Made by a program: the position numbers and the translations under genes. DNA of 64,000 bases from Gemmatimonadaceae bacterium (GTDB taxonomy: Bacteria; Gemmatimonadota; Gemmatimonadetes; Gemmatimonadales; Gemmatimonadaceae): positions 1,472,001 to 1,536,000 of the forward strand of contig JBJMOW010000005.1 in NCBI GenBank assembly GCA_045803545.1, written 5' to 3'. Below the pieces are notes generated by a model that made no database searches, was not told the DNA's origin, and was given only the letters and a program-made list of their open reading frames with translations. This document shows positions 22,238-50,087 of this stretch, one piece after another; position 1 is the first letter of the stretch, and each line of letters begins with the position of its first letter.

Positions 22238-22852
22238 CTAGTCTCCCGCTCGATCAAAGAGTCGCTGCGCCACCGCGTCCAGCGAGCTGCCGGCGGCTTC
22301 GAGTGCGACTGCGACATGGTAGACCAGGTCGGCCGCTTCCTCCGCGGCTTGATTGGCGTCGCCGTCGGCGAGCGCGGCGATGAGCTCACCGGTTTCTTCG
22401 CCGATCTTCTTGAGCCGGAGATTGCGATCGGTGAGCAGCTTCTTCGTGTAACTCGCTGACTTCGTCTCCACGTCTGCGACGCGTTTGGCAATTATCTTCG
22501 AGAGCGCAGACCAGGCACTTGCGGTTGCGAGCGAATCATCGAAGCACGATTGGGCACCGGAGTGGCAGGCCGGCCCCGCAGAGATAACGCGGGCGAGCAC
22601 CGTGTCGCCATCGCAATCGGCGGTGAGCGACACGACCCGTTGCAGGTTGCCGCTCGTCGCGCCCTTCCGCCACAGGCCGCGGGTGCGGGAGCGGTAATGC
22701 ATCTCGCCCGTTTTCAGGGTGAGCTCGAGCGCCTCCCGATCCGCGTTCGCAACCATCAATACCTGTCCGCTCACTGCGTCCTGTGCGACGACGACGATCG
22801 TTCCTTTGTCGGCGTCGAAGCGCAACTCATCCAGATCCAATCGCAGGGTCAT
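22238..22852 (-). CDS. hisIE: Bifunctional phosphoribosyl-AMP cyclohydrolase / phosphoribosyl-ATP diphosphatase
   Basis: SRTRGLWRKGATSGN, DCDGD, ACHSG..SCF, KKIGEE, EAADLVYH. Confidence 0.95.
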   Translation of the reverse strand: MTLRLDLDELRFDADKGTIVVVAQDAVSGQVLMVANADREALELTLKTGEMHYRSRTRGLWRKGATSGNLQRVVSLTADCDGDTVLARVISAGPACHSGAQSCFDDSLATASAWSALSKIIAKRVADVETKSASYTKKLLTDRNLRLKKIGEETGELIAALADGDANQAAEEAADLVYHVAVALEAAGSSLDAVAQRLFDRAGD

Positions 22853-23655
22853 CGCTGATCGCTCACCAGAAATTCGCGTGTTACCTCCGCGAGGTTTGCA
22901 TTGGTGGCGATGGCGTCGCCGCCGAACGACGTCGCACGACCACGCCAGTCGGTGAAAACGCCACCCGCTTCGACGATGATCGGCAGCAGCGCGGCGGCGT
23001 CCCAGTCGGAGACAACTTCGTCAACCATGATGTCGGCGCGACCGGTGGCGACGAGCAGGTAACCGTAACAATCGCCCCACGTCCGCATCGCGCCTACCTC
23101 GGTCTGTAGTCGCACCCAACGCTCGCGACGCGCTCTGTCGCGCAGAAATCTCGCGTCGGACGTAAGCAGTCGCGCGTCGGTCAGTCGATCCGTCGTCGAA
23201 ACTCGCGCGCGCGATCCGTTCCACCAGCAGCCTTGCCCCGTGGCTGCCAGAATTGTCTCGTCGAGTGCCGGGAAATACGCTGCGCCCGCGATCACGGAGT
23301 CGCCTTCCGCCACAGCGACGAGCGTTCCCCAGAGCGGCACCGATTGCAGAAAAGTGAAGGTCCCGTCGATCGGATCCAGAATCCAGCGTCGCACCGCCTC
23401 GGGTCTCGACTGCGGCAGCTCTTCGCCGAGGATTCCGTCGTCGGGAAATCTCCGCTCGATCCACTCACGAGCGGCGCGTTCGGCGTTGACGTCGGCGACA
23501 CTCACCGGCGATCCATCGCTCTTGATACGCGTCTCCGGATTCCTTCCGAAATAATTCTTCGCGACGTCGCCGGCTACACGCGCGACTTCGGCGACCGCAT
23601 CCATATATGTTTGCGTGTTGTCGGCGCCGAGTTCCAGAAGGCGAGTTTCCGTCAC
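22849..23655 (-). CDS. hisN: Histidinol-phosphate phosphatase, inositol monophosphatase family
   Basis: [32 protein letters not shown]; lies in the his operon; GTG start overlaps the hisF stop. Confidence 0.88.
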
Positions 23656-24413
23656 GCGGCGCTCCTTACACGAATGCCCGACGCCGCCAGCGCGGACTTC
23701 ACAGCGCGAATATCGGCAGTCCCATCGTGGAGAACTCCAGCCAGCAGCGCCGCTTGAGCGCCACCGTTTACGAAAGCGGCAACGACGTCTGCCGCTGACC
23801 CGGCGCCACCGGATGCGATCACCGGTACTGACACCGCGCCCGATACCGCGGCGGTCAGCGCGATATCGTACCCCGAGCGAGCACCATCGCGATCGATGCT
23901 GGTGAGAAGGATCTCGCCGGCGCCGAGCTCGGCGCACCTGACTGCCCACTCGACGGCATCGATCCCCGTCGGTTCCCTCCCGCCGTTGATGTAAACCTCC
24001 CATCGCGCGCCTTGTCGCAGCGCATCGATGCTCCCCACGACGCACTGTGATCCGAACCAGTCGGCCGCCTCGCTCAGTATCTGTGGGCGACGCACCGCCG
24101 CGGTGTTGATGGCGGTCTTGTCGGCGCCGGCGCGCAATGCCTCCGCGATGTCATCGACCGTGCGCATTCCTCCACCGACAGTCAGCGGAATGAACAATCG
24201 CTCAGCGGTGCGTCGAACGAGGTCGAGCAGGGTGCTTCGACCTTGATCCGTCGCCGAGATGTCGAGATAGACGATCTCGTCGGCGCCCTGCATCTCGTAC
24301 CGTTCGGCAAGGACCACGGGATCGCCGGCGTCACGAAGATTCACGAAGCCGGTTCCTTTGACGACCCGCCCGTCCTTTACATCTAGGCAGGCGATCACTC
24401 TCTGCGTCAGCAT
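23652..24413 (-). CDS. hisF: Imidazole glycerol phosphate synthase cyclase subunit
   Basis: [47 protein letters not shown]. Confidence 0.97.
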
Positions 24414-24423
24414 CGCTGGTCTC

Positions 24424-25005
24424 TCATCGTGGGCGGTCGACACTGACCGCGACAGTCCCCTTGGTGCTGACCGTGTCGCCAGTATCGACGAGCGCATCAC
24501 GGAGCGCGAGGCCGAGCGCCTTGAATGCGGCTTCGACGACGTGGTGGCGATCGCGACCACGCAGTACCACGACGTGGATGGTCGCGCGCGCCTCGTTGCT
24601 GAACGATCGCATCCAGTGATCGTACAAACCGCTAGGCAGCGGTCCTTCGTAGTAACGGCGCCCGCCGATATCGACCGAAACCTGAACCAGCGCATCGTCC
24701 ATTGGGATAACACGATTGCCGTAGCGAGCGGCACCCGCAGGGACGATGTCGCGAAACGCGCGACCGACGGTAAGCGCGACATCCTCGATCAAATGGTGCG
24801 GGAGATCGCCGCGCGCCGTCACCCTCAGACCGAGTCCGGAGTAGCGGGCGAACGCGGTGAGCATGTGATCGAGAAATCGGTTGCCGGTGTCGATCGGTTT
24901 TTTGCCAGAGGCGGCTTGCTCGATTGCGCTGCTCGCGCCGTTGTCTCCCGGCAGAATCTCGACGCTGATCGATGTCTCGTTCGTCTCTCGCTTCGTCACG
25001 CCCAT
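24424..25005 (-). CDS. hisB: Imidazoleglycerol-phosphate dehydratase (monofunctional)
   Basis: [33 protein letters not shown]. Confidence 0.95.
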
Positions 25006-25712
25006 GCGGACATTTCCTCGATGAGTGTTTGCGGATTCAGGGCACCCGTGTAGAGCGCCATGCCAACGATCGCCGCGACAGCTCCCGCGTCGGCGAGCGC
25101 GCGGATGTCGTCAATGCTTCGTACTCCACCCGAGGCCTGAACTGGAATCGTCGATCGCGCAGTGATTTCCTCGACGAGTCTGACGTCGGGGCCTTCCAGG
25201 CGACCCTCGCGCTCGACCGCCGTCACCAGAACGGCAGCGAGCGCAAGCGGCGCGAGGCATTCGACGAATTCGATCACATCGCGTAAGCTGGTTCGCGACC
25301 AGCCGCGCGAGAGCACTCGTCGCCCCGATGCATCGGCGGCAACGATGATCTGGTTTGGGTAGCGCCTCACCGCATCCTCGAGCCAGGCGCCGTCCTCGAC
25401 AGCACGTGTGCCGAGCACGACCTCTGATGCGCCGGCGTCGAGCAGCTCATCGATGGTATCGAGATCTCGCACGCCGCCACCGCACTGGAAGCTCCCCGCT
25501 CCTTGGAGGATTTCTCGAACGGTCTCGCGATTGGAGCCGCGTCCGGTGGCGGCGTCGAGATCGACGATGTGAATGCGGGAGAATCCGAGGCTTGTCCACT
25601 CGCCTGCAACGGCGACAGGATCCGCGATCCTGACGCGTTCCTCGGCGTACGATCCGCCGACGAGCTGCACGCAGGCCCCGTCGCGGATGTCGATGGCGGG
25701 AATCACTTGCAT
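24996..25712 (-). CDS. hisA: ProFAR isomerase
   Basis: MQVIPAIDIRDGACVQL, HIVDLDAA, GGGVR, ASGGVRS. Confidence 0.95.
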   Translation of the reverse strand: MQVIPAIDIRDGACVQLVGGSYAEERVRIADPVAVAGEWTSLGFSRIHIVDLDAATGRGSNRETVREILQGAGSFQCGGGVRDLDTIDELLDAGASEVVLGTRAVEDGAWLEDAVRRYPNQIIVAADASGRRVLSRGWSRTSLRDVIEFVECLAPLALAAVLVTAVEREGRLEGPDVRLVEEITARSTIPVQASGGVRSIDDIRALADAGAVAAIVGMALYTGALNPQTLIEEMSAWA

Positions 25713-26377
25713 GTCATTGAATCACGCGCCGCATCGACGACTCGAATCTCCGAATCGAGGAGATCGTCGATGACGGCGTTGATGAAAGCGCGACCGGCAG
25801 CGGAGCTCTTCTCCGGGTGAAACTGGACGCCGACGGTATTGGCGCGGCGAACGACCGACGCGAAGGTCGTGTCCTGGTGCGTCGTCGATGCCAGCACGAA
25901 GGATTGATCGTCCGGGCGACAGACATAAGCATTGGCGAAATACGCCGTCTGCAACCGGCCTAATGGGGCAACGTCGTCGCGCCATTCGATGTCGTTCCAT
26001 CCCATGTGCGGCACGGTCGGAGTGCGGAGCCTGGTGACGTTGCCGGCGATGAAACCGAGACCCTGACCAGGTCCTTCCTCGCTACCGTCGAAGAGAAGCT
26101 GCATGCCGAGGCAAATGCCGAGGCACGGCAGGCCGTCCTCGAGTGCGGACGCGACGGATGGCCGCGCGCTCTGCATCGCCCGCGCCGCGGCGCCGAAAGC
26201 TCCGACGCCCGGCAGCACCAGGAGATCCGCGCTGATGGCGCGCCTCAGATCGGTCTCGACGGAGATGTCCCGATCATCTCTGGCGATGGCCTTGAGCAGC
26301 GAGTGCAGGTTGCCGGCGCCGTAATCGTAGACTGCGATTGTGCTCCGTCTGCCACCATTTATTGCGCGCGAGATCAC
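25703..26377 (-). CDS. hisH: Imidazole glycerol phosphate synthase glutaminase subunit
   Basis: DYGAGNLHS, LPGVGAF, GICLGMQ, PHMGWN, QFHPEKS. Confidence 0.95.
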   Translation of the reverse strand: MISRAINGGRRSTIAVYDYGAGNLHSLLKAIARDDRDISVETDLRRAISADLLVLPGVGAFGAAARAMQSARPSVASALEDGLPCLGICLGMQLLFDGSEEGPGQGLGFIAGNVTRLRTPTVPHMGWNDIEWRDDVAPLGRLQTAYFANAYVCRPDDQSFVLASTTHQDTTFASVVRRANTVGVQFHPEKSSAAGRAFINAVIDDLLDSEIRVVDAARDSMTCK

Positions 26378-27444
26378 GTAGCCTCCTCGAGCGCGTCGAG
26401 GAAACGATGCATCATCTCCCAAGGTCCAACCGCGACACGGATGGCGTCGCCGATGCCGCGAAGTTGCGGCAGTGCACGAACGCGGACTCCGAGCCGCTCC
26501 AGACGAGACGCGAGTGCCACGCACTCGGTGACCGGCGCGAGGAGGAAGTTTGCGGCCGACTCGAATGTGTCGATGCCGCGCATCTTCAGCTCGGCGCGGA
26601 GGCGCGAACGGTTGACGACGACTTGCTTGATTCGCTCGCCGACCCATGCGCGTTCACTGGTGAGAGTAGCAATGGCGGCACGCTCGGCGGGTGAGCTGAC
26701 CTTGTACGGTCCGCGCGCCTTCATTACCTCGGCGACCAGCTCTGGTGCGCCCACTCCGTAGCCAACGCGGAGTCCCGCCAGCCCGAACGCCTTCGACATC
26801 GTGCGCGTCACGATTACCGGCCGGCCGCTGCGGACAAGATCTACAAAGTCATCGCCACCGAATTCGACGTACGCCTGATCGATGATGACGAGCCCCGGTG
26901 CGCGCTCCACGATTTGCTCTACGCTTTCGCGCGAAAGGGCACTACCGGTCGGATTGTTCGGTGTACAGAGGTAGATGATGCGCGCACCTGACTCTACCAT
27001 CGCGTCGACGTCGACATCGAGCGAATCGGTCAGCGGAACAGCGACGGGAACGAGTCCGTTGGTGCGCGCAAAAACGGGAATCATGCTGAACGACGGATCG
27101 GGCAGGCACAGCACTTCGCCCGGCTGGGCGAAAGCGCGGATTGCAGAATCGAGCACATCATCCGAGCCGCAGCCGCACACTATCATTTCTGCAGACACGC
27201 CGACGTACCGCGCGAGTGCCTCGGCGAGTGCCGGCTCGTAAGCGACCGGGTAGCGGGCGATACTTCCATGTCGCGCCGCGGCGATCGCCCGCAACGCAGC
27301 CGGTGGCGCGCCCCACAGATTGGTGTTGTCGCTCAGATCCAGTGCGACGGTTTCGCGCGGCGCGGAGTACAGCCCAATGTCGCGATAGCCCTCGCGCAAC
27401 AGCGAAGCGATCGAATCAGCTCCTGAAGTGACGTTGGTTGTCAT
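26374..27444 (-). CDS. hisC: Histidinol-phosphate aminotransferase
   Basis: PNNPTG, RTMSKAFGLAGLRVGY. Confidence 0.95.
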   Translation of the reverse strand: MTTNVTSGADSIASLLREGYRDIGLYSAPRETVALDLSDNTNLWGAPPAALRAIAAARHGSIARYPVAYEPALAEALARYVGVSAEMIVCGCGSDDVLDSAIRAFAQPGEVLCLPDPSFSMIPVFARTNGLVPVAVPLTDSLDVDVDAMVESGARIIYLCTPNNPTGSALSRESVEQIVERAPGLVIIDQAYVEFGGDDFVDLVRSGRPVIVTRTMSKAFGLAGLRVGYGVGAPELVAEVMKARGPYKVSSPAERAAIATLTSERAWVGERIKQVVVNRSRLRAELKMRGIDTFESAANFLLAPVTECVALASRLERLGVRVRALPQLRGIGDAIRVAVGPWEMMHRFLDALEEAT

Positions 27445-28784
27445 TGATTGACCCGGAATTCACTTCGCTTTGCCTGCGCACGCGGCGCCAGCGCCGCTGC
27501 TGCGTGCGCGGGCAGACCCTCAGCGGATGCGAGAATCGCGGTGTCACTGGCGAGTCGTTGCGCCGCTTCGGGCGTCACTTTCTGGTACGAGGTCCAGCGA
27601 ACGAAATCGAGGGTGCCGAGTCCGGAGTAGCTGCGCGCCAGACCGCCGGTGGGCAAAACGTGATTGCCGCCCGTGAGGTAATCGCCGAACACGACCGACG
27701 AAGACTCGCCGACAAACACGCAGCCGGCGTTGCGCACGTCGGGAAGCACTCGCTCCGGATCGTCGAAGGCCAGCAGCAGATGTTCGGGCGCGAATTCATT
27801 TGCGAACCGGATTGCTTCTGTTATCGACGCGGCGGTGACGAGAACGCCCGATTGTTCGAGCGCTGCACGAATTACATCGGCGCGCGGCGCATCGGTGAGG
27901 ATCTGTTCGACGGCGTTGGCGATCGACACCGCTGTCGCATCATCTATACAAATGACGACGACGCAGGCGTTCACATCGTGCTCCGCTTGCGCCACGACCT
28001 CGTGGGCGATCGTGTCGGCGTCGCAAGTCGCATCGCAAATCACCAGCAGCTCGCTCGGGCCCGCGGGAGAGTCGATCGCCACATCCCGGCACACCTGCAG
28101 TTTCGCTTCGGCGACGTAGGCATTGCCAGGCCCGACGATTCGATCGACTCGTGGAATGGTTTCAGTGCCGTAGGCCATCGCGGCGATTGCGCCTGCGCCG
28201 CCGACGGAGAAAACGCGATCTATTCCGGCGATCTCGCACGCCGCGAGAACTATGGACGCCGGGCTTCCATCACTTTGCGGCGGTGAACAGAGCACGATCT
28301 CGGCAACACCAGCGATGCGCGCGGGGATTCCCGCCATCAGTACGCTGCTCGCATACGCCGCGCGTCCGCCCGGCGCATAAATGCCGACACGCTCCAATGG
28401 ATCGGACCATCTCCCGACGGTCACACCCGGTTCCGTTTCGACTTCGACGGTCCGCGGCGGGAACGCACCGTGAAAAGACCCGATGTTCCGCGCCGCACGC
28501 TCGAGCGCGGATCGCACAGGGGGAGCAACATCATCAAGTGCCCGCCGTCGCACAGCACGCGAAACTTCGAGCGCATCGATCGACACTCCGTCGTACGCGA
28601 GCGCCATCTCCCTCAGCGCGTGATCGCCATCGCACCGGACACGCCCAATAATTCGTTCAGTCGCCTCGCGCACCAGCGAGCTGGTCGCGCTCGAGCGTCG
28701 CAGCACTGACCTGCCGTCGCCGGCGGATAACGAGCTCAGCGCGCCTGCAAATTTCCAGCAGGTGTCCTCGATTGTCTGGGTCAT
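27441..28784 (-). CDS. hisD: Histidinol dehydrogenase
   Basis: GPGNAYVAEAK, IDSPAGPSE, AQAEHD, APEHL, GDYLTGGNHVLPT. Confidence 0.97.
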   Translation of the reverse strand: MTQTIEDTCWKFAGALSSLSAGDGRSVLRRSSATSSLVREATERIIGRVRCDGDHALREMALAYDGVSIDALEVSRAVRRRALDDVAPPVRSALERAARNIGSFHGAFPPRTVEVETEPGVTVGRWSDPLERVGIYAPGGRAAYASSVLMAGIPARIAGVAEIVLCSPPQSDGSPASIVLAACEIAGIDRVFSVGGAGAIAAMAYGTETIPRVDRIVGPGNAYVAEAKLQVCRDVAIDSPAGPSELLVICDATCDADTIAHEVVAQAEHDVNACVVVICIDDATAVSIANAVEQILTDAPRADVIRAALEQSGVLVTAASITEAIRFANEFAPEHLLLAFDDPERVLPDVRNAGCVFVGESSSVVFGDYLTGGNHVLPTGGLARSYSGLGTLDFVRWTSYQKVTPEAAQRLASDTAILASAEGLPAHAAAALAPRAQAKRSEFRVNQ

Positions 28785-29644
28785 GGCATCAGCCGCTCCA
28801 CCCGCGTGACGAGAATGCCACTGGCGTCGAGAGCCTTGAGCGCACCGATCGTTTTGTAGACCGTTCCCGCGTCGACCACCGCGTGCACCGCCACGCGATC
28901 ACCGCCGTTGAGGATGTCGATCACCGTCGGACCGTTGATCCCAGGGATGACCTGCTTCACTGCATCGAGCGATCGCCGCGGCACATTTGCCATCAAGTAC
29001 CTCTTGCCGCGCGCTCTGACAACGGAATCGAGCGCCATAATGAGCGAATCGAGCGCCTCTCGCCGGTCGCGCTCGAACGCGGCGTCGCATCGCGTGACGA
29101 GGTGCGCGCGGGAGGAGAGCAACGTGCCGATCTCCCGCAGTCCGTTGACCTTGAGAGTCGAGCCAGTCGAGGTGATGTCGACGATGACGTCGGCGATGCC
29201 GAGCAGCGGCGCGATTTCCGCAGCGCCCGAGATCGGCACTATTACGACGTTCTGGTTTCGTTCCTGAAAGAATTCCCGCGTGACGTTGGGGAACGAAGTC
29301 GCAATGCGCATTTCCGGCGCGATGTCGTCGACGGTGATAATTGGACTGTCGTCGCGGACAGCGGCGACGAGTCGGCAATCGCCAAAGCCGAGATCGAGCC
29401 TTCGCTCGACGGGACGTCCCGATTCGCGCACCAGGTCCCAGCCGGTGACTCCAACGTCGGCGACACCGTCGGCAACGAATTCCGGAATGTCATTGGCCCG
29501 AACGAACAGCGCCTCGAACTCTCCGCCGAGTGATGCGGTAAGAGCCCGGTCGCTGCCTGATAGCACGGGCAGTCCGGCGTCTCTGAAGAGCTCGCGCGCA
29601 TCGTCAGCAAGCCGTCCTTTGTTTGGCAGCGCGATTCTAAGCAT
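28781..29644 (-). CDS. hisG: ATP phosphoribosyltransferase, long form
   Basis: MLRIALPNKGRL, VRANDIP, DITSTGSTL; C-terminal regulatory domain present (287 aa). Confidence 0.96.
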   Translation of the reverse strand: MLRIALPNKGRLADDARELFRDAGLPVLSGSDRALTASLGGEFEALFVRANDIPEFVADGVADVGVTGWDLVRESGRPVERRLDLGFGDCRLVAAVRDDSPIITVDDIAPEMRIATSFPNVTREFFQERNQNVVIVPISGAAEIAPLLGIADVIVDITSTGSTLKVNGLREIGTLLSSRAHLVTRCDAAFERDRREALDSLIMALDSVVRARGKRYLMANVPRRSLDAVKQVIPGINGPTVIDILNGGDRVAVHAVVDAGTVYKTIGALKALDASGILVTRVERLMP

Positions 29645-29708: not shown

Positions 29709-29736
29709 AAAAAACCCGTCCAGGAATCGGACGGGC
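29709..29736 (-). terminator. his attenuator terminator
   Basis: Minus strand GCCCGTCC-gattcct-GGACGGGT followed by a T run. Confidence 0.85.
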
Positions 29737-29774: not shown

Positions 29775-29864
29775 CTATAGTCTGACGTTCACGCGCAAGA
29801 GCGTCCGCGGCCCGAAATGGCCGTGGCGCGGGTGCGCATGGTTGGTGAAGGTGTTTGTCGTCAT
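29775..29864 (-). CDS. hisL: his operon leader peptide MTTNTFTNHAHPRHGHFGPRTLLRVNVRL
   Basis: 4 His in 8 codons; lies between the promoter and the terminator upstream of hisG. Confidence 0.8.
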   Translation of the reverse strand: MTTNTFTNHAHPRHGHFGPRTLLRVNVRL

Positions 29865-29872: not shown

Positions 29873-29901
29873 ATGTTAACCGGCGGGTGCGATCAGCGCA
29901 A
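29873..29901 (-). promoter_or_regulatory. sigma70-type promoter for the his leader
   Basis: TTGCGC-N17-TAACAT, 8 nt before the leader ATG. Confidence 0.6.
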
Positions 29902-30067: not shown

Positions 30068-30096
30068 TTTACTTTTCCGCCGACATACTCTACCTT
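30068..30096 (+). promoter_or_regulatory. sigma70-type promoter for the aroF leader
   Basis: TTTACT-N17-TACCTT, 8 nt before the leader ATG. Confidence 0.55.
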
Positions 30097-30104: not shown

Positions 30105-30191
30105 ATGACCGCATTGTGGTTCGGAGTGACCTACTACGCTGGCTTTATCGGCTACTTGCCGATAGGGGGCCCCGGGTCGCGCGTGCGGTAA
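30105..30191 (+). CDS. Aromatic amino-acid leader peptide MTALWFGVTYYAGFIGYLPIGGPGSRVR
   Basis: 1 Trp, 2 Phe and 3 Tyr in codons 5-17; upstream of a terminator and DAHP synthase. Confidence 0.8.
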   Translation: MTALWFGVTYYAGFIGYLPIGGPGSRVR

Positions 30192-30227: not shown

Positions 30228-30266
30228 AGGGCCTTCGCCGAACGCGGGGGCCCTTTCTCTTTTTCT
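30228..30266 (+). terminator. aroF attenuator terminator
   Basis: AGGGCCTTCGC-cgaac-GCGGGGGCCCT followed by TTCTCTTTTTCT. Confidence 0.8.
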
Positions 30267-30324
30267 ATTTCGGCGCCCGCGAGAACGAGACCCGATCTCT
30301 CACCATCACTCGGGGATGTGTGTC

Positions 30325-31294: not shown

Positions 31295-33798
<2,504 letters not shown>

Positions 33799-33920: not shown

Positions 33921-33954
33921 CTGTTCGACTGAAGAGCGTTGGATAAAGAAATAG

Positions 33955-36194: not shown

Positions 36195-36201
36195 GGTGTC
36201 C

Positions 36202-40942: not shown

Positions 40943-41042
40943 GAGTCGTGCGCGTCTTGCACTCATTGTGGCAGAATTGCTCAGTTGCTCGGTGATTTGT
41001 GCATGGCTGAGCTTGGGTTTGTGCAAAAGTTGCAAATTCTGC

Positions 41043-41071
41043 TTGACAACTTGAAACCAGCCGAATATGCT
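41043..41071 (+). promoter_or_regulatory. sigma70-type promoter of the amtB operon leader
   Basis: TTGACA-N17-TATGCT, 9 nt before the leader ATG. Confidence 0.75.
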
Positions 41072-41080: not shown

Positions 41081-41188
41081 ATGATTCTCGCTCGCCGCGT
41101 CTCTTCCAATAACCCGGGAAACAATCGCCAGCTCCCACAGAACCTGTGGGACGTCTTCGATCGTTCCGGGATGAGCGCAATGAGATAA
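41081..41188 (+). CDS. Putative Asn/Gln leader peptide MILARRVSSNNPGNNRQLPQNLWDVFDRSGMSAMR
   Basis: 5 Asn + 2 Gln in codons 10-21; lies between promoter and terminator upstream of amtB. Confidence 0.7.
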   Translation: MILARRVSSNNPGNNRQLPQNLWDVFDRSGMSAMR

Positions 41189-41216: not shown

Positions 41217-41258
41217 GCCCCGCGTTTCGATCGAATGAACGCGGGGCTTTTTGTTTTT
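41217..41258 (+). terminator. Terminator in the amtB 5' leader (attenuator)
   Basis: GCCCCGCGTT-N11-AACGCGGGGC followed by TTTTTGTTTTT, about 40 nt before the amtB start. Confidence 0.88.
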
Positions 41259-42806: not shown

Positions 42807-42890
42807 CGGGAAGCGGGAAGCGGGAAGCGGGAAGCGGGAAGCCGGTAACGGGTAACGCGTTACCGGTTACGCGTTACGGGTTACGGGCAA
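42806..42890. repeat. Heptamer array between amtB and glnK
   Basis: (GCGGGAA)x5, then GGTAAC units with the palindrome GTAACGCGTTAC. Confidence 0.92.
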
Positions 42891-42927
42891 CAGATCTGAA
42901 TTCATTTTTTCACGCAACGAGGATCTA

Positions 42928-43326
42928 ATGAAACTCATTAGCTGCGTCATCCGCCCGGAGCGACTGGGGGCGGTGAAGGAAGCCTTGTTTCAAGCTGGTG
43001 TTACTGGAATCAGCATCAGCCGCGTCAGCGGACACGGCGGCGAACACGAGGTCGTCGAGCATTATCGCGGCTCGTCGGTCGTGCTCGAGTTCCGCGAGAA
43101 AGTCAAAGTCGAGATGGCGTGCTCGGAGCCGTTCGTCGAGCCGACAATAAGGGCGATTCTGTCCTCAGCTCGCACCGGCGAAGTCGGCGACGGAAAAATA
43201 TTCGTCCAGCCGCTGGAGCAAGTCATTCGGATTCGCACCGGCGAGCGCGACAACGCCGCGCTCACCCCCATTACCGCCGACGATGTCCAGCGCCGCGCGC
43301 GCGGCTTAGCGCTCTCAGCCGTTTAA
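42928..43326 (+). CDS. glnK: P-II family nitrogen regulator with divergent T-loop
   Basis: YRG, KVKVE, ARTGEVGDGKIFV..IRIRTGE; directly downstream of amtB. Confidence 0.93.
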   Translation: MKLISCVIRPERLGAVKEALFQAGVTGISISRVSGHGGEHEVVEHYRGSSVVLEFREKVKVEMACSEPFVEPTIRAILSSARTGEVGDGKIFVQPLEQVIRIRTGERDNAALTPITADDVQRRARGLALSAV

Positions 43327-43362
43327 ACGAACGCCACCCTACGCCTCACAGGAGACCACGAG

Positions 43363-44637
43363 ATGCACCGAACATCCGCAGTTGCTCGCGTATCGCCTCC
43401 CCCATCCCGAGCGGGGCCCTTGCTGATTCACCTTGTTGCATTGATGCTGGCGCTTCTTGTCGCCGTCGTCGCCAACGCGCAAGGCGTGAAGCTCCAGCCC
43501 AGCGATTCAGTCGCTCCGGCAGTGTTGAGAGCCGACTCCAAGTATTCTCCCGCCGACACCACCGCAAAAGTCGACGCGGCCGCAAAAGCCGACGCCGCCG
43601 CCGCGCTTCCCAAGTGGTTCGAGGATCTTGCGCTGAACGCCTTCGTCTCCACCGCCTACGAGTACAACACCAACCGCCCCGCTCCCGGCACCAACAGCTA
43701 CCGCGTCTTCGACTTCAACGACAACTCGTTCAACCTCGACGTCGCCGAAGTCGTCGTGCAGATCGCCGCATCGAAACCGAACGACGCCGGCTTTCGCGTT
43801 GACGTCGATGCGGGAAATTCGATTCCGCAGATCGCGAAAACTCAGGATCAGACGGCGACTCAGTTCGATCTCCAGCAAGCATTCGCCACCTACATCGCGC
43901 CGATCGGCTCCGGTCTCCGCTTCGACGTCGGCAAGTACGTCACCCACCTCGGGTACGAGGTGATCGAGGGTTACGACGGCTACAACGACAACTACAGCCG
44001 GTCGATTCTCTTCGGCTACGCGATCCCGTTCACTCACACCGGGGTCAAAGCGACCTACGCCTTCTCGAGCAAAGTCGCTGGCATGTTCGAAGTGGTGAAC
44101 GGGTGGGATCTGCTGCGCGACAACAACCGCTCGAAGTCGCTCGGCGCACAGCTCACGTTGACACCGGCAGCGCCGTTCAGCGTACTCCTGAACTGGATCG
44201 GCGGACCGGAGCTCGCCAACGACAATCACACCAAGCGCAACGTCTTCGACGTCGTCGCGATACTCAAACCGACCAATCGGCTGACGCTCGGCGTCAACGG
44301 TGATTACGGGATCGAGGACGGCACCAGTCGAGTGAATCCCGGCTCTGATGCGATCTGGAAAGGCATCGCCGGCTATGCCGTGCTCGGACTCAAAGAAAAT
44401 CTCTCCGTCGGTTTACGCGGCGAGACCTTCCACGACGACGGTGGCGTCCGACTCGGCACCGATACGAAAGCGAGATTGTCGGAAGCTACGCTCACACCAG
44501 TCTACAAGTTCACCAATCACGTACTGGCGCGCGGAGAAGTTCGCTTCGACAAGGCGAACCAACCAATCCTCGCCAAGCGCGGAACGCTGAGCGACAAGCA
44601 GACGACGATCGGCCTCAACGTGATCTTTGTGTATTGA
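43363..44637 (+). CDS. Outer-membrane beta-barrel porin (BBP2/OmpL-like)
   Basis: Signal-like N-terminus; GKYVTHLGYEVIE..NYSRS.LF..AIPFTHTG; terminal aromatic residue (VIFVY). Confidence 0.78.
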   Translation: MHRTSAVARVSPPPSRAGPLLIHLVALMLALLVAVVANAQGVKLQPSDSVAPAVLRADSKYSPADTTAKVDAAAKADAAAALPKWFEDLALNAFVSTAYEYNTNRPAPGTNSYRVFDFNDNSFNLDVAEVVVQIAASKPNDAGFRVDVDAGNSIPQIAKTQDQTATQFDLQQAFATYIAPIGSGLRFDVGKYVTHLGYEVIEGYDGYNDNYSRSILFGYAIPFTHTGVKATYAFSSKVAGMFEVVNGWDLLRDNNRSKSLGAQLTLTPAAPFSVLLNWIGGPELANDNHTKRNVFDVVAILKPTNRLTLGVNGDYGIEDGTSRVNPGSDAIWKGIAGYAVLGLKENLSVGLRGETFHDDGGVRLGTDTKARLSEATLTPVYKFTNHVLARGEVRFDKANQPILAKRGTLSDKQTTIGLNVIFVY

Positions 44638-44647
44638 TGAGGCCGCA

Positions 44648-45940
44648 ATGATCCAGGCCGACACACTCGCCCCGGTGGTGCTGGCGTTGGCGATCGTCCT
44701 CGCTTCGGCAAAGCTCGGCGGCGACGCCGCCGAGCGTGTGGGGCAACCGGCGGTTCTTGGCGAGCTCGTCGTCGGGGTGCTTGTCGGCAACCTCACCCTC
44801 GTTGGCGTGGACTGGTTCGGATTCATCACCACCAACGCCACCGTCGGAGTGTTGGCGCAGCTGGGCGCTGTCATCCTGCTCTTTGAAGTAGGACTCGAAT
44901 CCACGGTCCGCGACATGATGAAGGTCGGAGTGCGTTCGCTGGTGGTGGCTGTGCTCGGCGTCGTCACGCCGTGGGCGCTCGGCTGGTGGGTCGGTGCGCT
45001 GCTCCTCCCGCAGCAAAGTGTCTACGTTCACGCCTTCATCGGCGCGGCGCTGACCGCAACGAGTGTCGGCATTACGGCGCGAGTGCTCAAGGATCTGGGG
45101 TACGCACAATCGGCGGAAGCGCGCATCATCCTCGGCGCGGCGGTGATCGACGACGTGCTCGGCCTGGTCGTTCTCGCCGCTGTTGCCGCGTTCATTTCAG
45201 CCGCCGACAGCGGCGCCGGTTTATCGTACGGCGCGCTGGTGATCGTGCTCGGCAAAGCGATTGTCTTTCTGTTCGGCGCGCTGTCGCTCGGCGTCGTTTT
45301 CTCGCCGCGGCTATTCGGCTTCGCGTCACGACTCCGCGGAAGCGGTGTGCTGCTGGCGACGGCGCTCGTCTTCTGTTTTACGCTAGCGTGGCTGGCCAGC
45401 GTCATCGGCTTGGCGCCGATCGTCGGCGCTTATGCTGCGGGGCTCGTCCTCGAAGACCTGCACTACCGCGACCTTATGGCGAAGGAGGAGAGGCGACTCG
45501 AGGAACTCGTTCGACCGATCTCGTCGTTTCTGGTCCCGGTCTTTTTTGTTTTGATGGGAATGCGCGTCGACCTGAGCGCATTTGCGCGACTGGAGATCGT
45601 CGGTCTGGCGGCGGCACTCACCGCTGCGGCGGTGGTGGGCAAGCAGGCATGCGCGATTGGCGCGATTGGTGCGAAGCTCGACGCGTTGTCGATCGGAATC
45701 GGCATGATCCCGCGAGGCGAGGTTGGGCTCATCTTCGCCAATATCGGACTTACGCTGGTCGTCCGCAACGAGCACGTTGTCGATTCGGCGACGTTCTCTG
45801 CGGTCGTCATTGTGGTGATGATGACGACGCTGATAACGCCGCCCGCGCTGAAATGGAGTCTTGGTCGGGGAGCCCGATCACAAACCCTGAGGGAGGACGT
45901 GCGATGGAGGACGGAGGCGGCGAAGCGGGCGGCGGGATAG
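44648..45940 (+). CDS. Cation:proton antiporter (CPA2/NapA-like)
   Basis: LLFEVGLE, ATSVGITARVL, AAVIDD, GMIPRGEVGLIFA. Confidence 0.92.
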   Translation: MIQADTLAPVVLALAIVLASAKLGGDAAERVGQPAVLGELVVGVLVGNLTLVGVDWFGFITTNATVGVLAQLGAVILLFEVGLESTVRDMMKVGVRSLVVAVLGVVTPWALGWWVGALLLPQQSVYVHAFIGAALTATSVGITARVLKDLGYAQSAEARIILGAAVIDDVLGLVVLAAVAAFISAADSGAGLSYGALVIVLGKAIVFLFGALSLGVVFSPRLFGFASRLRGSGVLLATALVFCFTLAWLASVIGLAPIVGAYAAGLVLEDLHYRDLMAKEERRLEELVRPISSFLVPVFFVLMGMRVDLSAFARLEIVGLAAALTAAAVVGKQACAIGAIGAKLDALSIGIGMIPRGEVGLIFANIGLTLVVRNEHVVDSATFSAVVIVVMMTTLITPPALKWSLGRGARSQTLREDVRWRTEAAKRAAG

Positions 45941-46052: not shown

Positions 46053-46415
46053 TTAGTTCGAGTCGCCCCGCAGTTTTTTCAGAAGACCGTGCAGCATCTT
46101 GCGGACATCGATGATGCGAGGGAGAAGGCTCGTGAAATCCTGCTCGGTCATCAGCTTAAGATCGCGAGCGAGTTGAACGTGTCCCTCGAGTTCGGTTGCT
46201 GAAGCAATGGCGTAACCGAGATAACGCGCAAACTCACGGGGACTCGTATGCGCGCTGCCCTCGACGATATTCGTCGGCACCGACATCGCGGCGCGCAAGA
46301 GTTGGTCGCGCACCGTGGCGCTACGAGTTCCGCGCATGCGCGCAGTGACTCGCTCCGCATCAATCGCGACCTGCAGCGCCGCCTCCCAGACACGAAGTTT
46401 CCTGAAGTCAGCCAC
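46053..46415 (-). CDS. Four helix bundle protein (23S rRNA IVS protein / TIGR02436-like)
   Basis: DFRKLRVWEAA..DQLLRAAMSVPTNIVEG..EFARYLGYAIASATEL..LARDL..KMLHGL. Confidence 0.9.
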   Translation of the reverse strand: MADFRKLRVWEAALQVAIDAERVTARMRGTRSATVRDQLLRAAMSVPTNIVEGSAHTSPREFARYLGYAIASATELEGHVQLARDLKLMTEQDFTSLLPRIIDVRKMLHGLLKKLRGDSN

Positions 46416-46658: not shown

Positions 46659-47774
46659 TTATCCGCGGACAACCAATCCCTCAATCTCCTCTCCAACCTC
46701 CACCGTCGAGCACGCCCTCCCTCCTATCTGCACAATGTCCGCAGTAACGCAGCCCTTCCCGATTGCCGCACCGACAGCAGTCTCCACCGTCACCGCCTCC
46801 CGCTCGAGCCCGAAAGAATACCTGAGCATCATCGCCACGCTGAGAATCGTCCCGATCGGATTCGCAATTCCCCGCCCCGCAATATCCGGTGCCGACCCGT
46901 GAATCGGCTCATACAGTCCGCATCGCCCGCCTGCGCCCTTCCGTCTCGCGTCTCCCGCCTCGTCGCCCAACGACGCCGACGGAAGCACGCCGAGCGACCC
47001 GGCGAGCATCGAGGCTTCGTCGGTGAGAATGTCGCCGAACATGTTCTCGGTCACGATAACGTCAAAGTCCCGCGGCTGGCGCAGCAGCATCATCGCACAC
47101 GCGTCGACCAGCACGTGTTCCAGCGCCACGTCAGGGAATTCCTCCCGCAAAACACGCGTGACGGTCGATCGCCACAGCCGCGACGTCTCGAGCACGTTCG
47201 CCTTGTCGACCGACGTCAGCTTGCGCCCGCGTGAGCGCGCCAGCCGCGCGGCGACACGCGTGACACGCTCGATCTCGCCGGTCGTATAAGAACAGACGTC
47301 GACCGCCCGCTCACCGCCATCAACTCGCTCGCGCCGCTTGTCGCCGAAGTAGATGCCGCCCGTCAGCTCGCGCACGACGATGAAATCAACCCCCACGATC
47401 AGCTCGGTCCGTAGCGGCGACCGGGCCGCGAGCAAAGGATGAACTGTTACCGGGCGAAGATTGGCGTACACCCCCAGCTCCCGCCGCAAGCCAAGTAGTC
47501 CCTGCTCCGGGCGCATGTGCGCGGCGGGATCGTCCCAACGCGGACCACCAACCGCCCCGAGCAGGACGGCGTCGGCGCTCAGACAAAGATCGATGGTTTC
47601 CGGCGGGAGCGGGGTTCCGCGTACGTCGAGCGCGGAGCCGCCGATCAACCCCTCCTCCAGCTCGATCGTATGACCGTATCGTGATGCCACCGCGCGCAGA
47701 ATTCGCACGCCTTCGGCGACAACCTCCGGTCCGATGCCATCGCCGGGAAGGACGGCAATCTTTAGAAACGCCAC
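46659..47774 (-). CDS. leuB: 3-isopropylmalate dehydrogenase
   Basis: LPGDGIGPEV, RELTGGIYFG, VDKANVL, NMFGDILTDEA, EPIHGSAPDIAG. Confidence 0.97.
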   Translation of the reverse strand: MAFLKIAVLPGDGIGPEVVAEGVRILRAVASRYGHTIELEEGLIGGSALDVRGTPLPPETIDLCLSADAVLLGAVGGPRWDDPAAHMRPEQGLLGLRRELGVYANLRPVTVHPLLAARSPLRTELIVGVDFIVVRELTGGIYFGDKRRERVDGGERAVDVCSYTTGEIERVTRVAARLARSRGRKLTSVDKANVLETSRLWRSTVTRVLREEFPDVALEHVLVDACAMMLLRQPRDFDVIVTENMFGDILTDEASMLAGSLGVLPSASLGDEAGDARRKGAGGRCGLYEPIHGSAPDIAGRGIANPIGTILSVAMMLRYSFGLEREAVTVETAVGAAIGKGCVTADIVQIGGRACSTVEVGEEIEGLVVRG

Positions 47775-47796
47775 GAGCGGCGAGGAAGTCTGACTG

Positions 47797-48417
47797 TCAG
47801 CGTGTCGAGACGCGCGCGGGATGCGCCGCCTCGTAGGCGGCGATCGCCGTCTCCTCGCCGAGCAGGAATCCGAGCTCGTCGACCCCGTTCAGCAGACAGT
47901 GTTTCGCGAACGGATCCACGGGGAACGAGTGCATTGACCCGTCGGGTAACGTCGCCGTCAGCGTGGTGAGCTCTATCGTGACGCGGGCTTGCGGCGACTT
48001 GGCGAGCTGGTCCCCCAGACTAACGTGCGCAGCCGGGGTAAGGACGACGGGGAGCAGTCCGTTCTTGAGCGCGTTGCTGCGGAAGATGTCCGCGAAACCG
48101 GTGCTGATGATGGCGCGAAAGCCGAAATCGAGCAGCGCCCACGGCGCGTGCTCGCGCGACGAGCCGCAGCCGAAGTTGTGGCCGGCGACGAGGATTGATG
48201 CCTCGAGCGCGTCGGCGGAGTTGAGCGGAAAGTCGGCGCGGGGCTGGCCGCGTTCATCGACTCGCCAATCGGCGAACAGATGCGCGCCGAGTCCGCGACG
48301 CTCGATCGTCTTGAGAAAGCGCGCCGGAATGATCTGATCGGTGTCGACGTTGTCGGCCGGCAGCACGACGCACGAAGACGTGAGCCTCGTGAATGGTTGC
48401 ATCACCGTCTCGATCAC
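47797..48417 (-). CDS. leuD: 3-isopropylmalate dehydratase small subunit
   Basis: [45 protein letters not shown]. Confidence 0.97.
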
Positions 48418-49826
48418 GACAGGCTCCGCACGTCTGCGATCGCTCCGGTCACCGCGGTCGCCGCTGCTGTCAGCGGACTTGCCAGGAAAGTGCGGCCGCC
48501 TTTGCCCTGGCGTCCTTCGAAGTTGCGATTGCTGGTGCTAACCGCGCTCTGGCCCGGCGCGAGCTGATCGCCGTTCATCGCAATGCACATCGAGCAGCCT
48601 GCTTCACGCCATTCTGCGCCGGCTTCCTTGAACACTCGGTCGAGCCCTTCCGCTTCTGCCTGACTTTTGACATTGCGCGAGCCGGGCACGACCAGCATCC
48701 GCACTCCGGGTGCAACCCGACGTCCACGCATTACCGTTGCCGCCTCGCGCAGATCGGAGATACGCGAGTTAGTACAGCTCCCCACGAACACCACGTCGAC
48801 AGCGCGGCCGAGCAGTGCCTGCCCCGGCTCGAGCGCCATGTAGCGGAGCGCCTTGTCGAGATCGGCGCGCTCGGTCCCGCTCGCCGCAGAGTCGGGGTCA
48901 GGAACACGTCCGTCGATGGGAATCGCCATCGACGGGTTGGTGCCGAAAGTAATCATTGGAGCCAGGCTGTCTGCCCGCAGATTCAGCGTGCGATCGTACG
49001 ACGCGTCATCGTCGCTGACGAGTTGCCGCCAGCGATCGACCGCACCATCCCAGTCGCCGCCCGCCGGCGCAAACGGCCGGCCGGCTATGTACTCGGCAGT
49101 CGTGTCGTCGGGCGCAATGAGGCCGGCGCGCGCGCCTGCCTCGATCGACATGTTGCAGATGGTCATCCGGTTTTCCATCCCTAGCGCGCGAATCGCTGAA
49201 CCGGTGTACTCGAGCACGTGTCCGGTTGCGCCCCCGACGCCGATCCTGGCGATGATGGCGAGGATGATGTCCTTTGCCGTAACCCCGGGAGGAAGCGTTC
49301 CATCGATGGACAGCTGCATGCTGCGCGGCTTGCGCTGCAGCAGCGTCTGGGTTGCGAGAACGTAGCCCACTTCCGACGTCCCGATTCCAAACGCCAGCGC
49401 GCCAAACGCGCCGTGGGTGCTGGTGTGACTGTCACCGCAGACGATGGTCATGCCCGGCTGTGTAAGCCCCTGCTCCGGTCCGATGACGTGAACGATTCCC
49501 TGCCGACTGTCTTCGAGTCCGAACAGGCTAATGCCGAATTCGTCGCAGTTCGTCTCAAGCTGCGTGAGCTGCGCCGCCGCCTGGGAATCGAGCACCTGCA
49601 GACGGCCATGCGCCCGGGGCGTCGTCGGCGTCGAATGATCCATCGTCGCCAGCGTCAGCTCGGGTCGCCGCACCCCAACACCGCGACGCCGCAACTCGGC
49701 GAACGCCTGCGGCGACGTCACCTCGTGCACGAGATGCAGATCGACGTAAAGTACCGCCGGCGTGCTCTCGGTCTCGGCCCGAGCGACGTGGTCGTCCCAA
49801 ATCTTGTCGACGAGTGTTTGTGGCAA
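48414..49826 (-). CDS. leuC: 3-isopropylmalate dehydratase large subunit (probable TTG start)
   Basis: (M)[62 protein letters not shown]. Confidence 0.95.
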
Positions 49827-49827
49827 A

Positions 49828-49950
49828 GCGGGAAGCGGGAAGCGGGAAGCGGAAAGCGGGAAGCGGGAAACGGGCAACGGGCAACGGGCAACGGGCAACG
49901 GGCAACGGGCAACGGGCAACGGGTTACGCGTTACGCGTTACGCGTAACGG
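49828..49950. repeat. Compound heptamer array filling the space between the leu attenuator and the leuC start
   Basis: About 6 GCGGGAA, 7 CGGGCAA, then GCGTTAC units. Confidence 0.95.
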
Positions 49951-49985
49951 AAAAAAAAAGGCCCCTCGACATTTTCCGGGGGCCC
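49951..49985 (-). terminator. leu attenuator terminator
   Basis: Minus strand GGCCCCCG-gaaaatgt-CGAGGGGCC followed by T9. Confidence 0.85.
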
Positions 49986-50009
49986 GTCTGCCGCAATTCG
50001 CGAGAAATC

Positions 50010-50087
50010 TTATACGCGCACAGACAGACCGCCCCTATCAACGAGGTTCGAAATAAGAATAGAAAGTCGGGAGCCCGTAGCGCGCAT
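50010..50087 (-). CDS. leu leader peptide MRATGSRLSILISNLVDRGGLSVRV
   Basis: 4 Leu, 2 Ile, 3 Val including CTT/ATT/GTT codons; ends 24 nt before the terminator. Confidence 0.7.
   Translation of the reverse strand: MRATGSRLSILISNLVDRGGLSVRV

Follow-up and report, generated by a model that had tools for sequence, protein, structure and literature searches.

The window (the whole stretch of DNA analysed, 64,000 nucleotides of a Gemmatimonadaceae genome) harbours a 28-kb block in which genes for histidine, aromatic, methionine and branched-chain amino acid (BCAA) synthesis and for ammonium uptake follow one another contiguously (Table 1). With gene identities assigned using NCBIfam and Pfam, the order runs hisG-D-C-H-A-B-F-N-IE (-), aroF (+), metY-metX (-), ilvD-B-N-C-leuA (-), amtB-glnK-BBP2 porin-CPA2 antiporter (+), an ORF for a four-helix-bundle protein (-) and leuC-D-B (-). 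This confirms the contiguity of his, aroF, metYX, ilv-leuA, amtB-glnK and leuCDB described in an earlier note on this DNA and, as that note also stated, no transcription-factor gene is found among the listed genes of the block. Genome tblastn identified the his set as the only full one in the assembly, and the sole ilv and leu sets of the genome also lie within the block. The start of the DAHP synthase is uncertain (the match to its profile starts at position 51 of 338), and leuC has a predicted TTG start directly 3' of a heptamer array. The window contains no tRNA genes and no match to Rfam 15 families at gathering score, and a search of positions 40300-41400 at E<=10 gave no credible cis-regulatory match.

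Table 1. Features of the block and its leaders (window positions; hairpin energies in kcal/mol).
Feature	Position	Strand	Details
his operon hisG-D-C-H-A-B-F-N-IE	22238..29644	-	NCBIfam; genome tblastn
his terminator hairpin	29714..29736	-	-15.1, U tail
His leader ORF	29775..29864	-	29 aa, MTTNTFTNHAHPRHGHFGPRTLLRVNVRL, 4 His
his candidate antiterminator	29801-29813	-	
his promoter-like TTGCGC-17-TAACAT	29873..29901	-	consensus match only
aro promoter-like TTTACT-17-TACCTT	30068..30096	+	consensus match only
Aromatic leader ORF	30105..30191	+	28 aa, MTALWFGVTYYAGFIGYLPIGGPGSRVR, 1 Trp, 2 Phe, 3 Tyr
aro candidate antiterminator	30159-30173	+	
aro terminator hairpin	30228..30254	+	-20.2
DAHP synthase, type I-beta, aroF-type	30316..31239	+	NCBIfam/Pfam
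metY (O-acetylhomoserine sulfhydrylase)-metX	31295..33708	-	NCBIfam/Pfam
met terminator hairpin	33768..33792	-	-20.9, U8 tail
Met/Cys leader ORF	33822..33920	-	32 aa, MTTFALYTMCPICPCASLGETDRRVRAWCTSA
met antiterminator	33852-33865	-	
met promoter-like TTGACA-17-TAACTA	33952..33980	-	
ilvD-ilvB-ilvN-ilvC-leuA	33955..40366	-	NCBIfam/Pfam
ilv terminator	40416-40449	-	-25.5
ilv relay of repeated segments	40532-40539 (in ORF), 40485-40494, 40470-40478	-	
Leu/Ile/Val leader ORF	40510..40611	-	33 aa, GTG start, 15/32 codons L/I/V
ilv promoter-like TTGACA ... TTATGCT	40660..40688	-	
Palindromic box TGCA-AAAGT-TGCA	41022..41034	+	perfect TGCA-N5-TGCA, 8 nt 5' of -35 hexamer
Nitrogen promoter-like TTGACA-17-TATGCT	41043..41071	+	
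Asn leader ORF	41081..41188	+	35 aa, MILARRVSSNNPGNNRQLPQNLWDVFDRSGMSAMR
Asn leader internal hairpin	41134-41150	+	
Asn leader antiterminator segment	41155-41171	+	
Nitrogen-leader terminator hairpin	41217..41247	+	-19.5, U tail
amtB-glnK-BBP2 porin-CPA2 cation/proton antiporter	41298..45940	+	NCBIfam/Pfam
Four-helix-bundle protein (PF05635)	46053..46415	-	between heptamer arrays
leuC-leuD-leuB	46659..49826	-	NCBIfam/Pfam
leu terminator hairpin	49960..49984	-	-14.9, U9 tail
Leu/Ile leader ORF	50010..50087	-	25 aa, MRATGSRLSILISNLVDRGGLSVRV
leu candidate antiterminator	50026-50035	-	
leu promoter-like TTGACC-17-TACATT	50143..50171	-	

Six operons (his, aroF, metYX, ilvDBNC-leuA, amtB-glnK-porin and leuCDB) are each preceded by a promoter-like site, an upstream ORF (uORF) of 25-35 codons whose start and stop are conserved, and a U-tailed hairpin, with every uORF and hairpin lying where expected. 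These intrinsic terminators (-14.9 to -25.5 kcal/mol) lie between the uORF and the first gene, and are present in 38/39, 14/14, 20/20, 7/7, 16/16 and 11/11 homologues of the six leader sets. The proposal that each uORF is enriched in the residues of its own pathway holds for his, aro, met and ilv and, weakly, for leu, which has the weakest composition bias of the six; the nitrogen leader is marked by Asn and, since Asn is not the product of the operon, its link to the pathway is indirect.

The his and aro uORFs both begin with an ATG 8 nt past the promoter-like site, making the former near-leaderless. A His-rich uORF was found at all 27 of the hisG loci that had sufficient upstream sequence, and its modelled switch operates in 17/17 copies with the ribosome on the first His and in 2/20 with the ribosome on the last. 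The aromatic leader is kept in 9/9 aroF upstream regions, and another genus has an F/Y/W leader of unrelated sequence. The Met/Cys leader is present at 14/14 metY loci with full upstream DNA, with a modelled switch point directly after Cys15 and switching in all 14 homologues. Met/Cys leaders unrelated in sequence are found across Gemmatimonadales, and at 9/24 metY loci of other genera. At eight loci of one related genus (20 of the 24 loci were scanned) the same metY leader site is occupied by a SAM-II riboswitch (RF00521), which senses SAM directly and was not detected in the window; this swap between genera shows two mechanisms serving the same regulatory niche. The BCAA-type leader precedes 19/19 ilvD loci with upstream DNA and recurs, with divergent sequence, in 7/10 genomes of other genera; its switch was not reproduced by equilibrium or staged folding (2/16 and 0/18 copies).

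As evidence, the six composition matches, which the earlier note called unlikely by chance, carry less weight than claimed: taken one leader at a time, the binomial P is 7.6e-4 for met, 1.5e-3 for ilv, 1.7e-3 for his, 5.5e-3 for Asn, 1.7e-2 for aro and 6e-2 for leu, while loose scanning of the genome returned many unrelated uORFs at P of about 1e-3. We judge the six leaders to be real because they are conserved in relatives, the check across related genomes proposed in that note having given, besides the counts above, 14/23 usable leuC loci and 36 Asn leader copies. In a stricter scan of the 979 genes with a gap of at least 150 nt, 47 had a strong hairpin and 18 of them a uORF too; amino-acid or nitrogen leaders account for seven of these 18 (four in the block, those of gltB and of a pheA-like gene, and one rich in Cys), and the ilv and aro leaders were missed. 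The leaders of gltBD and the pheA-like gene lie elsewhere in the genome, and no leader was found for thrA, either in this genome or at the loci of three relatives. The segment said to be complementary to each hairpin outperforms shuffled sequences for ilv (5/500) and met (15/500), is borderline for Asn (31/500) and does not exceed them for his (193/500), aro (218/500) or leu (124/500). In the models, a ribosome at the stall codon gives more sequestration of the terminator arm than one at the stop, a difference present in 34/38 copies of the Asn leader, 14/14 of met, 5/7 of aro and 8/11 of leu. That some uORFs are chance frames within conserved structured leaders under protein control, leu being the likeliest case, would fit its composition (P = 0.06), the lack of a leader at 9/23 leuC loci and the frequency of uORF-hairpin pairs under loose criteria (173/1199 genes). 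We nevertheless consider this very unlikely, as the leaderless leuC loci are mostly placed directly behind hisIE or aroF, and leu homologues, including those in other genera, retain Leu/Ile despite sequence divergence.

The leader of amtB stands out as the block's most unusual feature. It occurs in 36 distinct copies within one genus, and wherever the gene downstream of a copy is recognised, it is one of three amtB types, glnK, glnA or a porin. A start codon is found in 36/36 copies, 16-19 codons 5' of the hairpin; indels in the ORF are all multiples of 3 among 24 aligned copies; of the single-base differences, a share of 0.58 is synonymous in frame versus 0.22 and 0.14 in the other frames; and non-majority letters show a third-position bias (50 versus 21 and 17). 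The Asn columns of an N-x-x-N-N motif are kept in 35/36, 35/36 and 36/36 copies, with AAT/AAC exchange only, counts that are partly circular because 25/36 copies were found by a pattern demanding Asn codons. Among the 11 copies recovered by the terminator pattern alone, Asn is kept in 11, 10 and 11, an Asn codon being changed in only one copy, and the adjacent Gly is kept in 3. Gln was rejected as the main sensed codon: since the single conserved Gln lies within a hairpin stem and is Arg in one copy, the selected codons appear to be Asn. Translation of this leader is an assumption, given that just 1/36 copies has a Shine-Dalgarno-like sequence. The antiterminator helix shows covariation no greater than shuffles, and the duplex beats 95/100 shuffles in only 18/36 copies. 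Against 401 genomes of the phylum, a sample with six other genomes of the genus, a profile of the leader matched its own genus only; two weak matches were antisense to a coding gene, and a pattern match (L051) that proved a chance match in a coding region was discarded. No N-x-x-N-N leader was found at 19 amt loci in 17 genomes of other genera, and at two amtB loci of another genus the promoter box is shared and the uORFs lack the motif.

Arrest-peptide leaders of the TnaC type would be expected to be under selection for peptide residues rather than for codons or RNA pairing. The C-terminal half of the Asn leader peptide (PQxxW..ERxG) is strongly conserved, as would also be expected from an arrest peptide or from RNA structure, so the nascent NxGNNRxxPQxxW..ERxG might stall the ribosome on sensing a free metabolite (e.g. 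glutamine), the stall position deciding termination as in TnaC with tryptophan, with the other five leaders being classical. An alignment of 25 peptides shows nine invariant residues, among them Pro, Gln, Trp and Gly well away from the Asn cluster, the ORF length is fixed, and an amtB uORF of another genus (L380) has a similar PQ-x-W stretch without the Asn cluster. Yet the invariant C-terminal residues overlap paired RNA and are encoded by nearly one codon each (CCA 36/36, CAG 35/36), which argues for constraint on the RNA rather than the peptide; moreover, arrest near the C terminus would cover the antiterminator and favour termination, and the stop position shifts by up to 5 codons. We regard arrest as distinctly unlikely. 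A new riboswitch for glutamine or another ligand, with an incidental ORF, would account for the high nucleotide conservation, the nested fold of 35 predicted pairs and a gene context resembling that of glutamine riboswitches (as described in the available part of PMC8632094), but appears highly improbable, given that only 1/35 pairs covaries, that no Rfam family matches, and that the start codon, in-frame indels, third-position bias and AAT/AAC-only exchange are as set out above.

The palindromic box at the nitrogen promoter recurs at a fixed position, with 7-8 of 8 matches to TGCA-N5-TGCA, in 15/34 nitrogen promoters and in 0/14 met and 0/17 ilv promoters (0/31 controls), and the same box is also found 5' of glnA elsewhere in the genome. 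This fixed position and the contrast of 15/34 with 0/31 imply a transcription factor: the box is likely the putative site of a nitrogen regulator and, judging from sequence, a separate factor probably acts on the same promoter as the Asn attenuator, contrary to the earlier picture of control without transcription factors. The genome's single AsnC-domain gene was rejected as the box factor, since this ORF of 117 codons seems too short to hold a DNA-binding domain and has no perfect box in its own upstream region.

We consider it probable that all six operons are under ribosome-mediated attenuators, and that the one before amtB-glnK reads Asn codons as a proxy for glutamine. A ribosome stalled on cognate codons would free a segment 8-16 codons from the middle of the ORF, which would pair with the 5' arm of the terminator and allow RNA polymerase to read through; a ribosome at the stop codon would cover this antiterminator segment, and the terminator would form. 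At the nitrogen leader, less glutamine would mean less charged Asn-tRNA. The genome contains asnS and gatB, with AsnRS and GatCAB encoded, while glnS, asnA and glnD were not found in the 93% complete assembly, nor was an archaeal-type non-discriminating AspRS, and asnA was not found in five relatives either; these absence calls are weak because rpoB is also missing from the assembly. With AsnRS and GatCAB, and without AsnA or GlnRS, the amide nitrogen of Asn would come via glutamine-dependent AsnB or transamidation, so that Asn-tRNA charging should drop as glutamine drops. Three AsnB genes sit among polysaccharide genes, and AsnB matches are absent in 2/5 leader-carrying relatives. With Asn codons making up only 3-5 of ~30 in the nitrogen leader, its predicted sensitivity is low, a low share of regulatory codons predicting low sensitivity in the accessible text of PMC1183508. 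A broader reading, which we hold as quite possible if tentative, is that the nitrogen regulon is read via the ribosome: an Asn-codon attenuator family, copied before three amtB types, glnK, glutamine synthetase and a porin, would use Asn charging as a glutamine gauge without GlnD and, together with the His, aromatic, Met/Cys, BCAA and Cys leaders, give near-complete ribosome-read control of biosynthesis, in which operons could shuffle freely, each having a sensor of its own.

The usual readers of nitrogen status in bacteria are proteins (GlnD/PII/NtrBC, GlnR/TnrA or NtcA). Glutamine riboswitches are another readout, and an attenuator counting Asn codons would, if true, add a third way, one that senses an amino acid which the operon does not itself produce. 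A comparative study from 2010, covering attenuators of many phyla, reportedly predicted an Asn/Asp leader for asnA in Bacteroidetes. In the literature searched, which covered supplementary motif lists in part, we did not find a prior description of an Asn-codon switch for nitrogen genes, a Gemmatimonadota leader, or an Asn or Met leader for these genes; the available part of one supplement of PMC8632094 held no matching leader.

Attenuation itself is an old mechanism, and four of its six cases here belong to ordinary types, though in a new phylum. Leaders of the his, aro, ilv and leu operons directly fit the classical attenuators (trp, his, leu, thr, ilvGMEDA, ilvBN as well as pheA of E. coli/Salmonella), which in the accessible sections of PMC1183508 share a uORF with cognate codons, an antiterminator in or just past the ORF and an intrinsic terminator before biosynthesis operons; here, by contrast, six occur in one 28-kb block of a Gemmatimonadota genome, and the Met/Cys and Asn specificities fall outside those named in these sections. 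The Corynebacterium ilvB uORF, as portrayed in the portions available of PMC10272879 and PMC11109978, is likewise BCAA-rich with a terminator and antiterminator before ilv, whereas the leader here precedes ilvD and has a five-segment repeat relay, the two being likened by description rather than as a sequence family. Having codons for sulfur amino acids in a uORF that precedes sulfur genes is a trait shared with the mycobacterial polycysteine leaderless ORFs or 'ribulon' (10.1101/834739), actinobacterial cys leaders without terminators (PMC1262725) and the Rhodobacterales cysS uORF (PMC8632094), insofar as the available text of these sources describes them; as there, several leaders here are near-leaderless and one family serves several operons, but the codons here are mixed Met and Cys, an intrinsic terminator is present, and the leader would control metY-metX. 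For Actinobacteria methionine operons, the same portion of PMC1262725 gives no conserved RNA element upstream. Glutamine riboswitches and the gltD motif (PMC8632094, in part) are also cis-RNAs before nitrogen-assimilation genes, likely reporting glutamine; what sets the Asn leader apart is the absence of an Rfam match and a conserved reading frame with synonymous variation. The extension of attenuation to sulfur amino acids and nitrogen that had been proposed stands as candidate leaders conserved in relatives.

The most plausible reading of the block is a group of self-regulated operons, inherited vertically and often rearranged, in one subclade of a genus that looks largely auxotrophic. A transferable module, as suggested earlier, is unsupported, and we consider it unlikely that the block moves horizontally as a prototrophy island, turning auxotrophic members of the genus into prototrophs. 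Carriage is patchy (of 109 genomes of the genus, 21 have ilvD, 26 leuC and 15 metY; each occurs in 5/31 high-quality ones), also inside the carrier clade, where ilvD requires 6 changes for 6 carriers; the block houses the genome's only his, ilv and leu sets; its neighbours look accessory, with a tRNA-Gln 28 kb away; and G114, a genome of the other gyrB clade, has the nitrogen module with a close leader. GC content is 63.0% versus 60.1 +/- 0.9 in 126 tiles (maximum 61.7), with a GC3 of 0.749 versus 0.714; this could reflect protein composition instead, and makes an older acquisition conceivable. However, the four tyrosine integrases are at least 450 kb distant or on another contig, none of 17 flanking proteins scanned belongs to a mobility family, and there was no flanking direct repeat pair among the largest 20 of 40 repeat families. 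Fourfold-site identity to relatives, near saturation, is 37-63% for cluster genes, similar to the 46-57% of gyrB, IlvD identity declines with taxonomic rank, and most genomes are incomplete MAGs, G114 being possibly mis-binned. A synteny check across related genomes likewise gave no support to a module: gene order is shuffled and the block split in relatives, and other genera cluster only ilv and leu. The block marks a prototrophic subclade, most high-quality genus genomes having no ilvD, leuC or metY match, which bears on the cultivation of these bacteria. On a tree of gyrB, chosen because rpoB is missing from the assembly and matched in 62/68 genomes, carriers of ilvD, leuC, metY or the Asn leader make up 14/25 genomes of one clade versus 1/37 of the other.

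The region around the attenuator candidates (Table) was found, using NCBIfam and Pfam, to comprise an uninterrupted run of hisGDCHABFN-IE, a DAHP synthase gene, metY-metX, ilvDBNC-leuA, amtB-glnK-porin-antiporter and leuCDB. No other complete set of his, ilv or leu genes occurs in the assembly that holds the window (G000; 3.7 Mb, 93% complete), whereas second copies of aroF, amtB, glnK and hisA are found elsewhere in it. All six blocks open with a sigma-70-like site, an ORF of 25-35 codons and a U-tailed hairpin; Rfam gave no match for the leaders of the window. Because their profile matches are partial, LeuA and the DAHP synthase seem from sequence to lack their feedback domains, and attenuation may be the main control of both. 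Degenerate heptamer arrays occupy most operon junctions, adjoin the start codons of hisG and leuC, and could promote rearrangement; the block holds three of the three runs of one unit type genome-wide, and five of 47 of another.

Features of the window and of a second contig of the same assembly (C2)
Feature	Location	Strand	Remark
Uninterrupted operon run	window 22238-49826
DAHP synthase	window 30316-31239		match begins at position 51 of 338-position profile
LeuA	window 33955-35175		match confined to positions 3-384 of 516-position profile
TGCA box	window 41022-41034	+	upstream of nitrogen promoter
Asn leader ORF	window 41081-41188	+	terminator 41217-41247
Degenerate heptamer arrays	window 29645, 29950-30060, 31250-31345, 40700-40950, 42800-42900, 45940-46040, 46500-46660, 49830-49940
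TPR-protein gene	window 18623-20270	-	apparently split, two overlapping frames near 19300; frameshift or assembly error
Leader before gltBD	C2 ~840-1030	+	Ile/Leu-rich uORF and terminator
Leader before pheA-like gene	C2 ~10100-10270	+	Phe/Tyr-rich uORF and terminator; 3 kb from gltBD
Leader before beta-carbonic-anhydrase-like gene	C2 ~744200-744411	+	32-codon uORF with 11 Cys, terminator

The earlier note had judged six matches between peptide and pathway to be unlikely by chance. Judged on a single genome, however, peptide composition gives only a modest signal (P between 8e-4 and 0.06). A loose scan returned 173 uORF-hairpin pairs among 1199 genes, and a strict-hairpin scan, which missed the ilv and aro leaders, retained 18 of 979 genes, seven of them amino-acid or nitrogen leaders. 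It is conservation in relatives, and not composition in one genome, that decides that the leaders are real. A His-rich uORF precedes hisG at 27/27 loci with sufficient upstream DNA (three of the 30 loci were too short), an aromatic uORF is present in all nine aroF upstream regions, a branched-chain uORF at 19/19 ilvD loci, a Met/Cys leader at 14/14 metY loci (a fifteenth is truncated) and a homologous leader at 14 of the 23 leuC loci, most of the remainder lying directly behind hisIE or aroF. These counts and the genus tallies include the window, together with one or two loci of genomes flagged as unpublished (G127, G074); such loci were excluded from the Asn-codon tally, folding models, duplex shuffles and first-His modelling, and the conclusions are independent of them. 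The six leaders are thus borne out as genuine conserved elements that most likely act as attenuators, and we consider the full reading, with Asn sensing, to be probable.

No published report of these leaders was found in the literature searched. Four of the six are of familiar kinds, met here in a phylum new for them; the Met/Cys leader represents a variant that has seldom been described. Most of the interest lies in the nitrogen regulon's Asn leader. The proposed extension to sulfur amino acids and nitrogen is upheld by the metY leaders and by 36 distinct Asn-leader copies, for which an attenuator role is predicted.

Seven of ten genomes from other genera carry an unrelated Leu/Ile/Val-rich uORF and terminator before ilvD. 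Of the metY loci taken from other genera and from other families, 24 in all (20 of them covered by the Rfam scan), nine possess a Met/Cys-rich uORF of unrelated sequence, eight (all from one genus) a SAM-II riboswitch and six neither, while one lacks upstream DNA. Since composition is kept without sequence and a riboswitch can stand in its place, comparative support for the predicted met leader is strong. PMC2965389 describes leader peptides trading places with other sensors and also reports a His leader from Firmicutes. In the metY leaders L386-L393, from one genus, the SAM-II riboswitch has upstream of it another conserved, structured element that includes a hairpin. Loci L396 and L397 were noted alongside these, L396 having a riboswitch-like stretch and terminator in tandem before a Met/Cys uORF.

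For the Asn leader, a peptide-derived pattern run over the 109 genus genomes found matches in 23, compared with none for the reversed pattern used as control; one match, in coding sequence, was discarded. A terminator-only pattern led to 41 loci: 19 with a U-tailed hairpin, 17 with the nitrogen element, and 11 new. Across the 36 distinct copies analysed (two loci were excluded), the start codon always lies 16-19 codons upstream of the CCCACAG hairpin, and the three Asn columns are kept in 35, 35 and 36 copies, counts that are partly circular as to how copies were found, with only AAT/AAC variation save for two exceptions. In the 11 terminator-found copies an Asn codon is altered in just one, and the adjacent Gly in eight. 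The synonymous share of single-base differences is 0.58 in frame versus 0.22 and 0.14 out of frame. AAT fills 29-33 of 36 copies per Asn column, opposite to the genome preference (AAT 5118 vs AAC 9456). The genes behind the leader encode three amtB types, glnK, glnA or a porin. An exact-pattern scan of a wide genome collection returned 83 stretches; among the 80 listed with titles, all 27 from Gemmatimonadota carry the full element (one ends with its contig before the start codon) and the other 53 do not. No nitrogen element was found outside its own genus, either when 401 phylum genomes were searched with a profile or at 19 amt loci in other genera. At two amtB promoters of another genus (L379, L380), the same TGCA box as in the window lies 8 nt upstream of TTGACA and is followed by different uORFs whose hairpins are weaker; these could be nitrogen leaders that have diverged or arisen independently. 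A 2010 survey may, reportedly, have proposed an Asn/Asp leader upstream of asnA.

In folding models where the ribosome masks 10 nt beyond the A site, the terminator 5' arm is paired away while the ribosome sits on the regulatory codons and becomes available once it reaches the stop codon. This pattern was obtained for 34/38 Asn, 14/14 met, 5/7 aro and 8/11 leu leaders; the modelled his switch occurs in 17/17 with the ribosome at the first His and in 2/20 at the last, and the change in the window's met leader falls directly after Cys15. Against such a switch, the ilv relay failed to change state in these models (2/16, 0/18), and the his, aro and leu antiterminator duplexes were not better than shuffles. 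Asn-leader duplexes exceeded shuffles at the 5% level in 18/36 copies, and the Asn antiterminator is 95.5% paired, with no covariation.

As to why asparagine might be sensed, AsnB and GatCAB both take their amide from glutamine, so that the level of Asn-tRNA would be expected to follow glutamine. G000 encodes AsnRS, GatB and three AsnB proteins; GlnRS, AsnA and GlnD had no match in this 93% complete assembly, absences that weigh little because rpoB is missing too, and AsnA was not found in five relatives either. Against a simple Asn route, the three asnB genes of G000 lie among polysaccharide genes and two of five leader carriers have no AsnB. A second AspRS was not found.

The earlier note also saw no transcription-factor gene inside the cluster, but a reading of control without such a factor is not supported. 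Of 34 nitrogen promoters, 15 carry a TGCA-N5-TGCA palindrome (7-8 of 8 matches) exactly 8 nt upstream of the -35 hexamer, the window's among them, versus 0 of 31 controls (14 met, 17 ilv). Further sites separate a divergent gene pair at C2's glnA locus and precede amtB in other families. Because this box, which we take to be similar to Lrp-family sites, implies a putative factor, attenuation-only control does not follow from a block free of regulators.

The suggestion of a transferable module fared no better. The genus genomes carry ilvD in 21, leuC in 26, metY in 15 and hisG in 62 of 109 cases, the first three each in 5 of 31 high-quality genomes. Synteny held in part: the same operons lie close together in eight relatives, often with gltBD, thrABC or glnA, but their order differs and in two better assemblies tens of kilobases break up the block; outside the genus, ilv and leu alone are neighbours. 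This shuffled order argues against a module, as do the absence of an integrase nearby, fourfold-site identity of block genes like that of gyrB, and carriers nearly confined to one clade of a gyrB tree of 62 genomes (14/25 versus 1/37; 6 changes vs 13.6 when shuffled). The high GC of the block (63.0%, above all 126 tiles) and its patchy presence could fit an older transfer.

Elsewhere in G000, a putative seventh leader precedes gltBD, with a related uORF in five relatives (L160, L161, L166, L171, L172). C2 also holds a leader before a pheA-like gene, named by eye from its N-terminal sequence, and a Cys-rich one.
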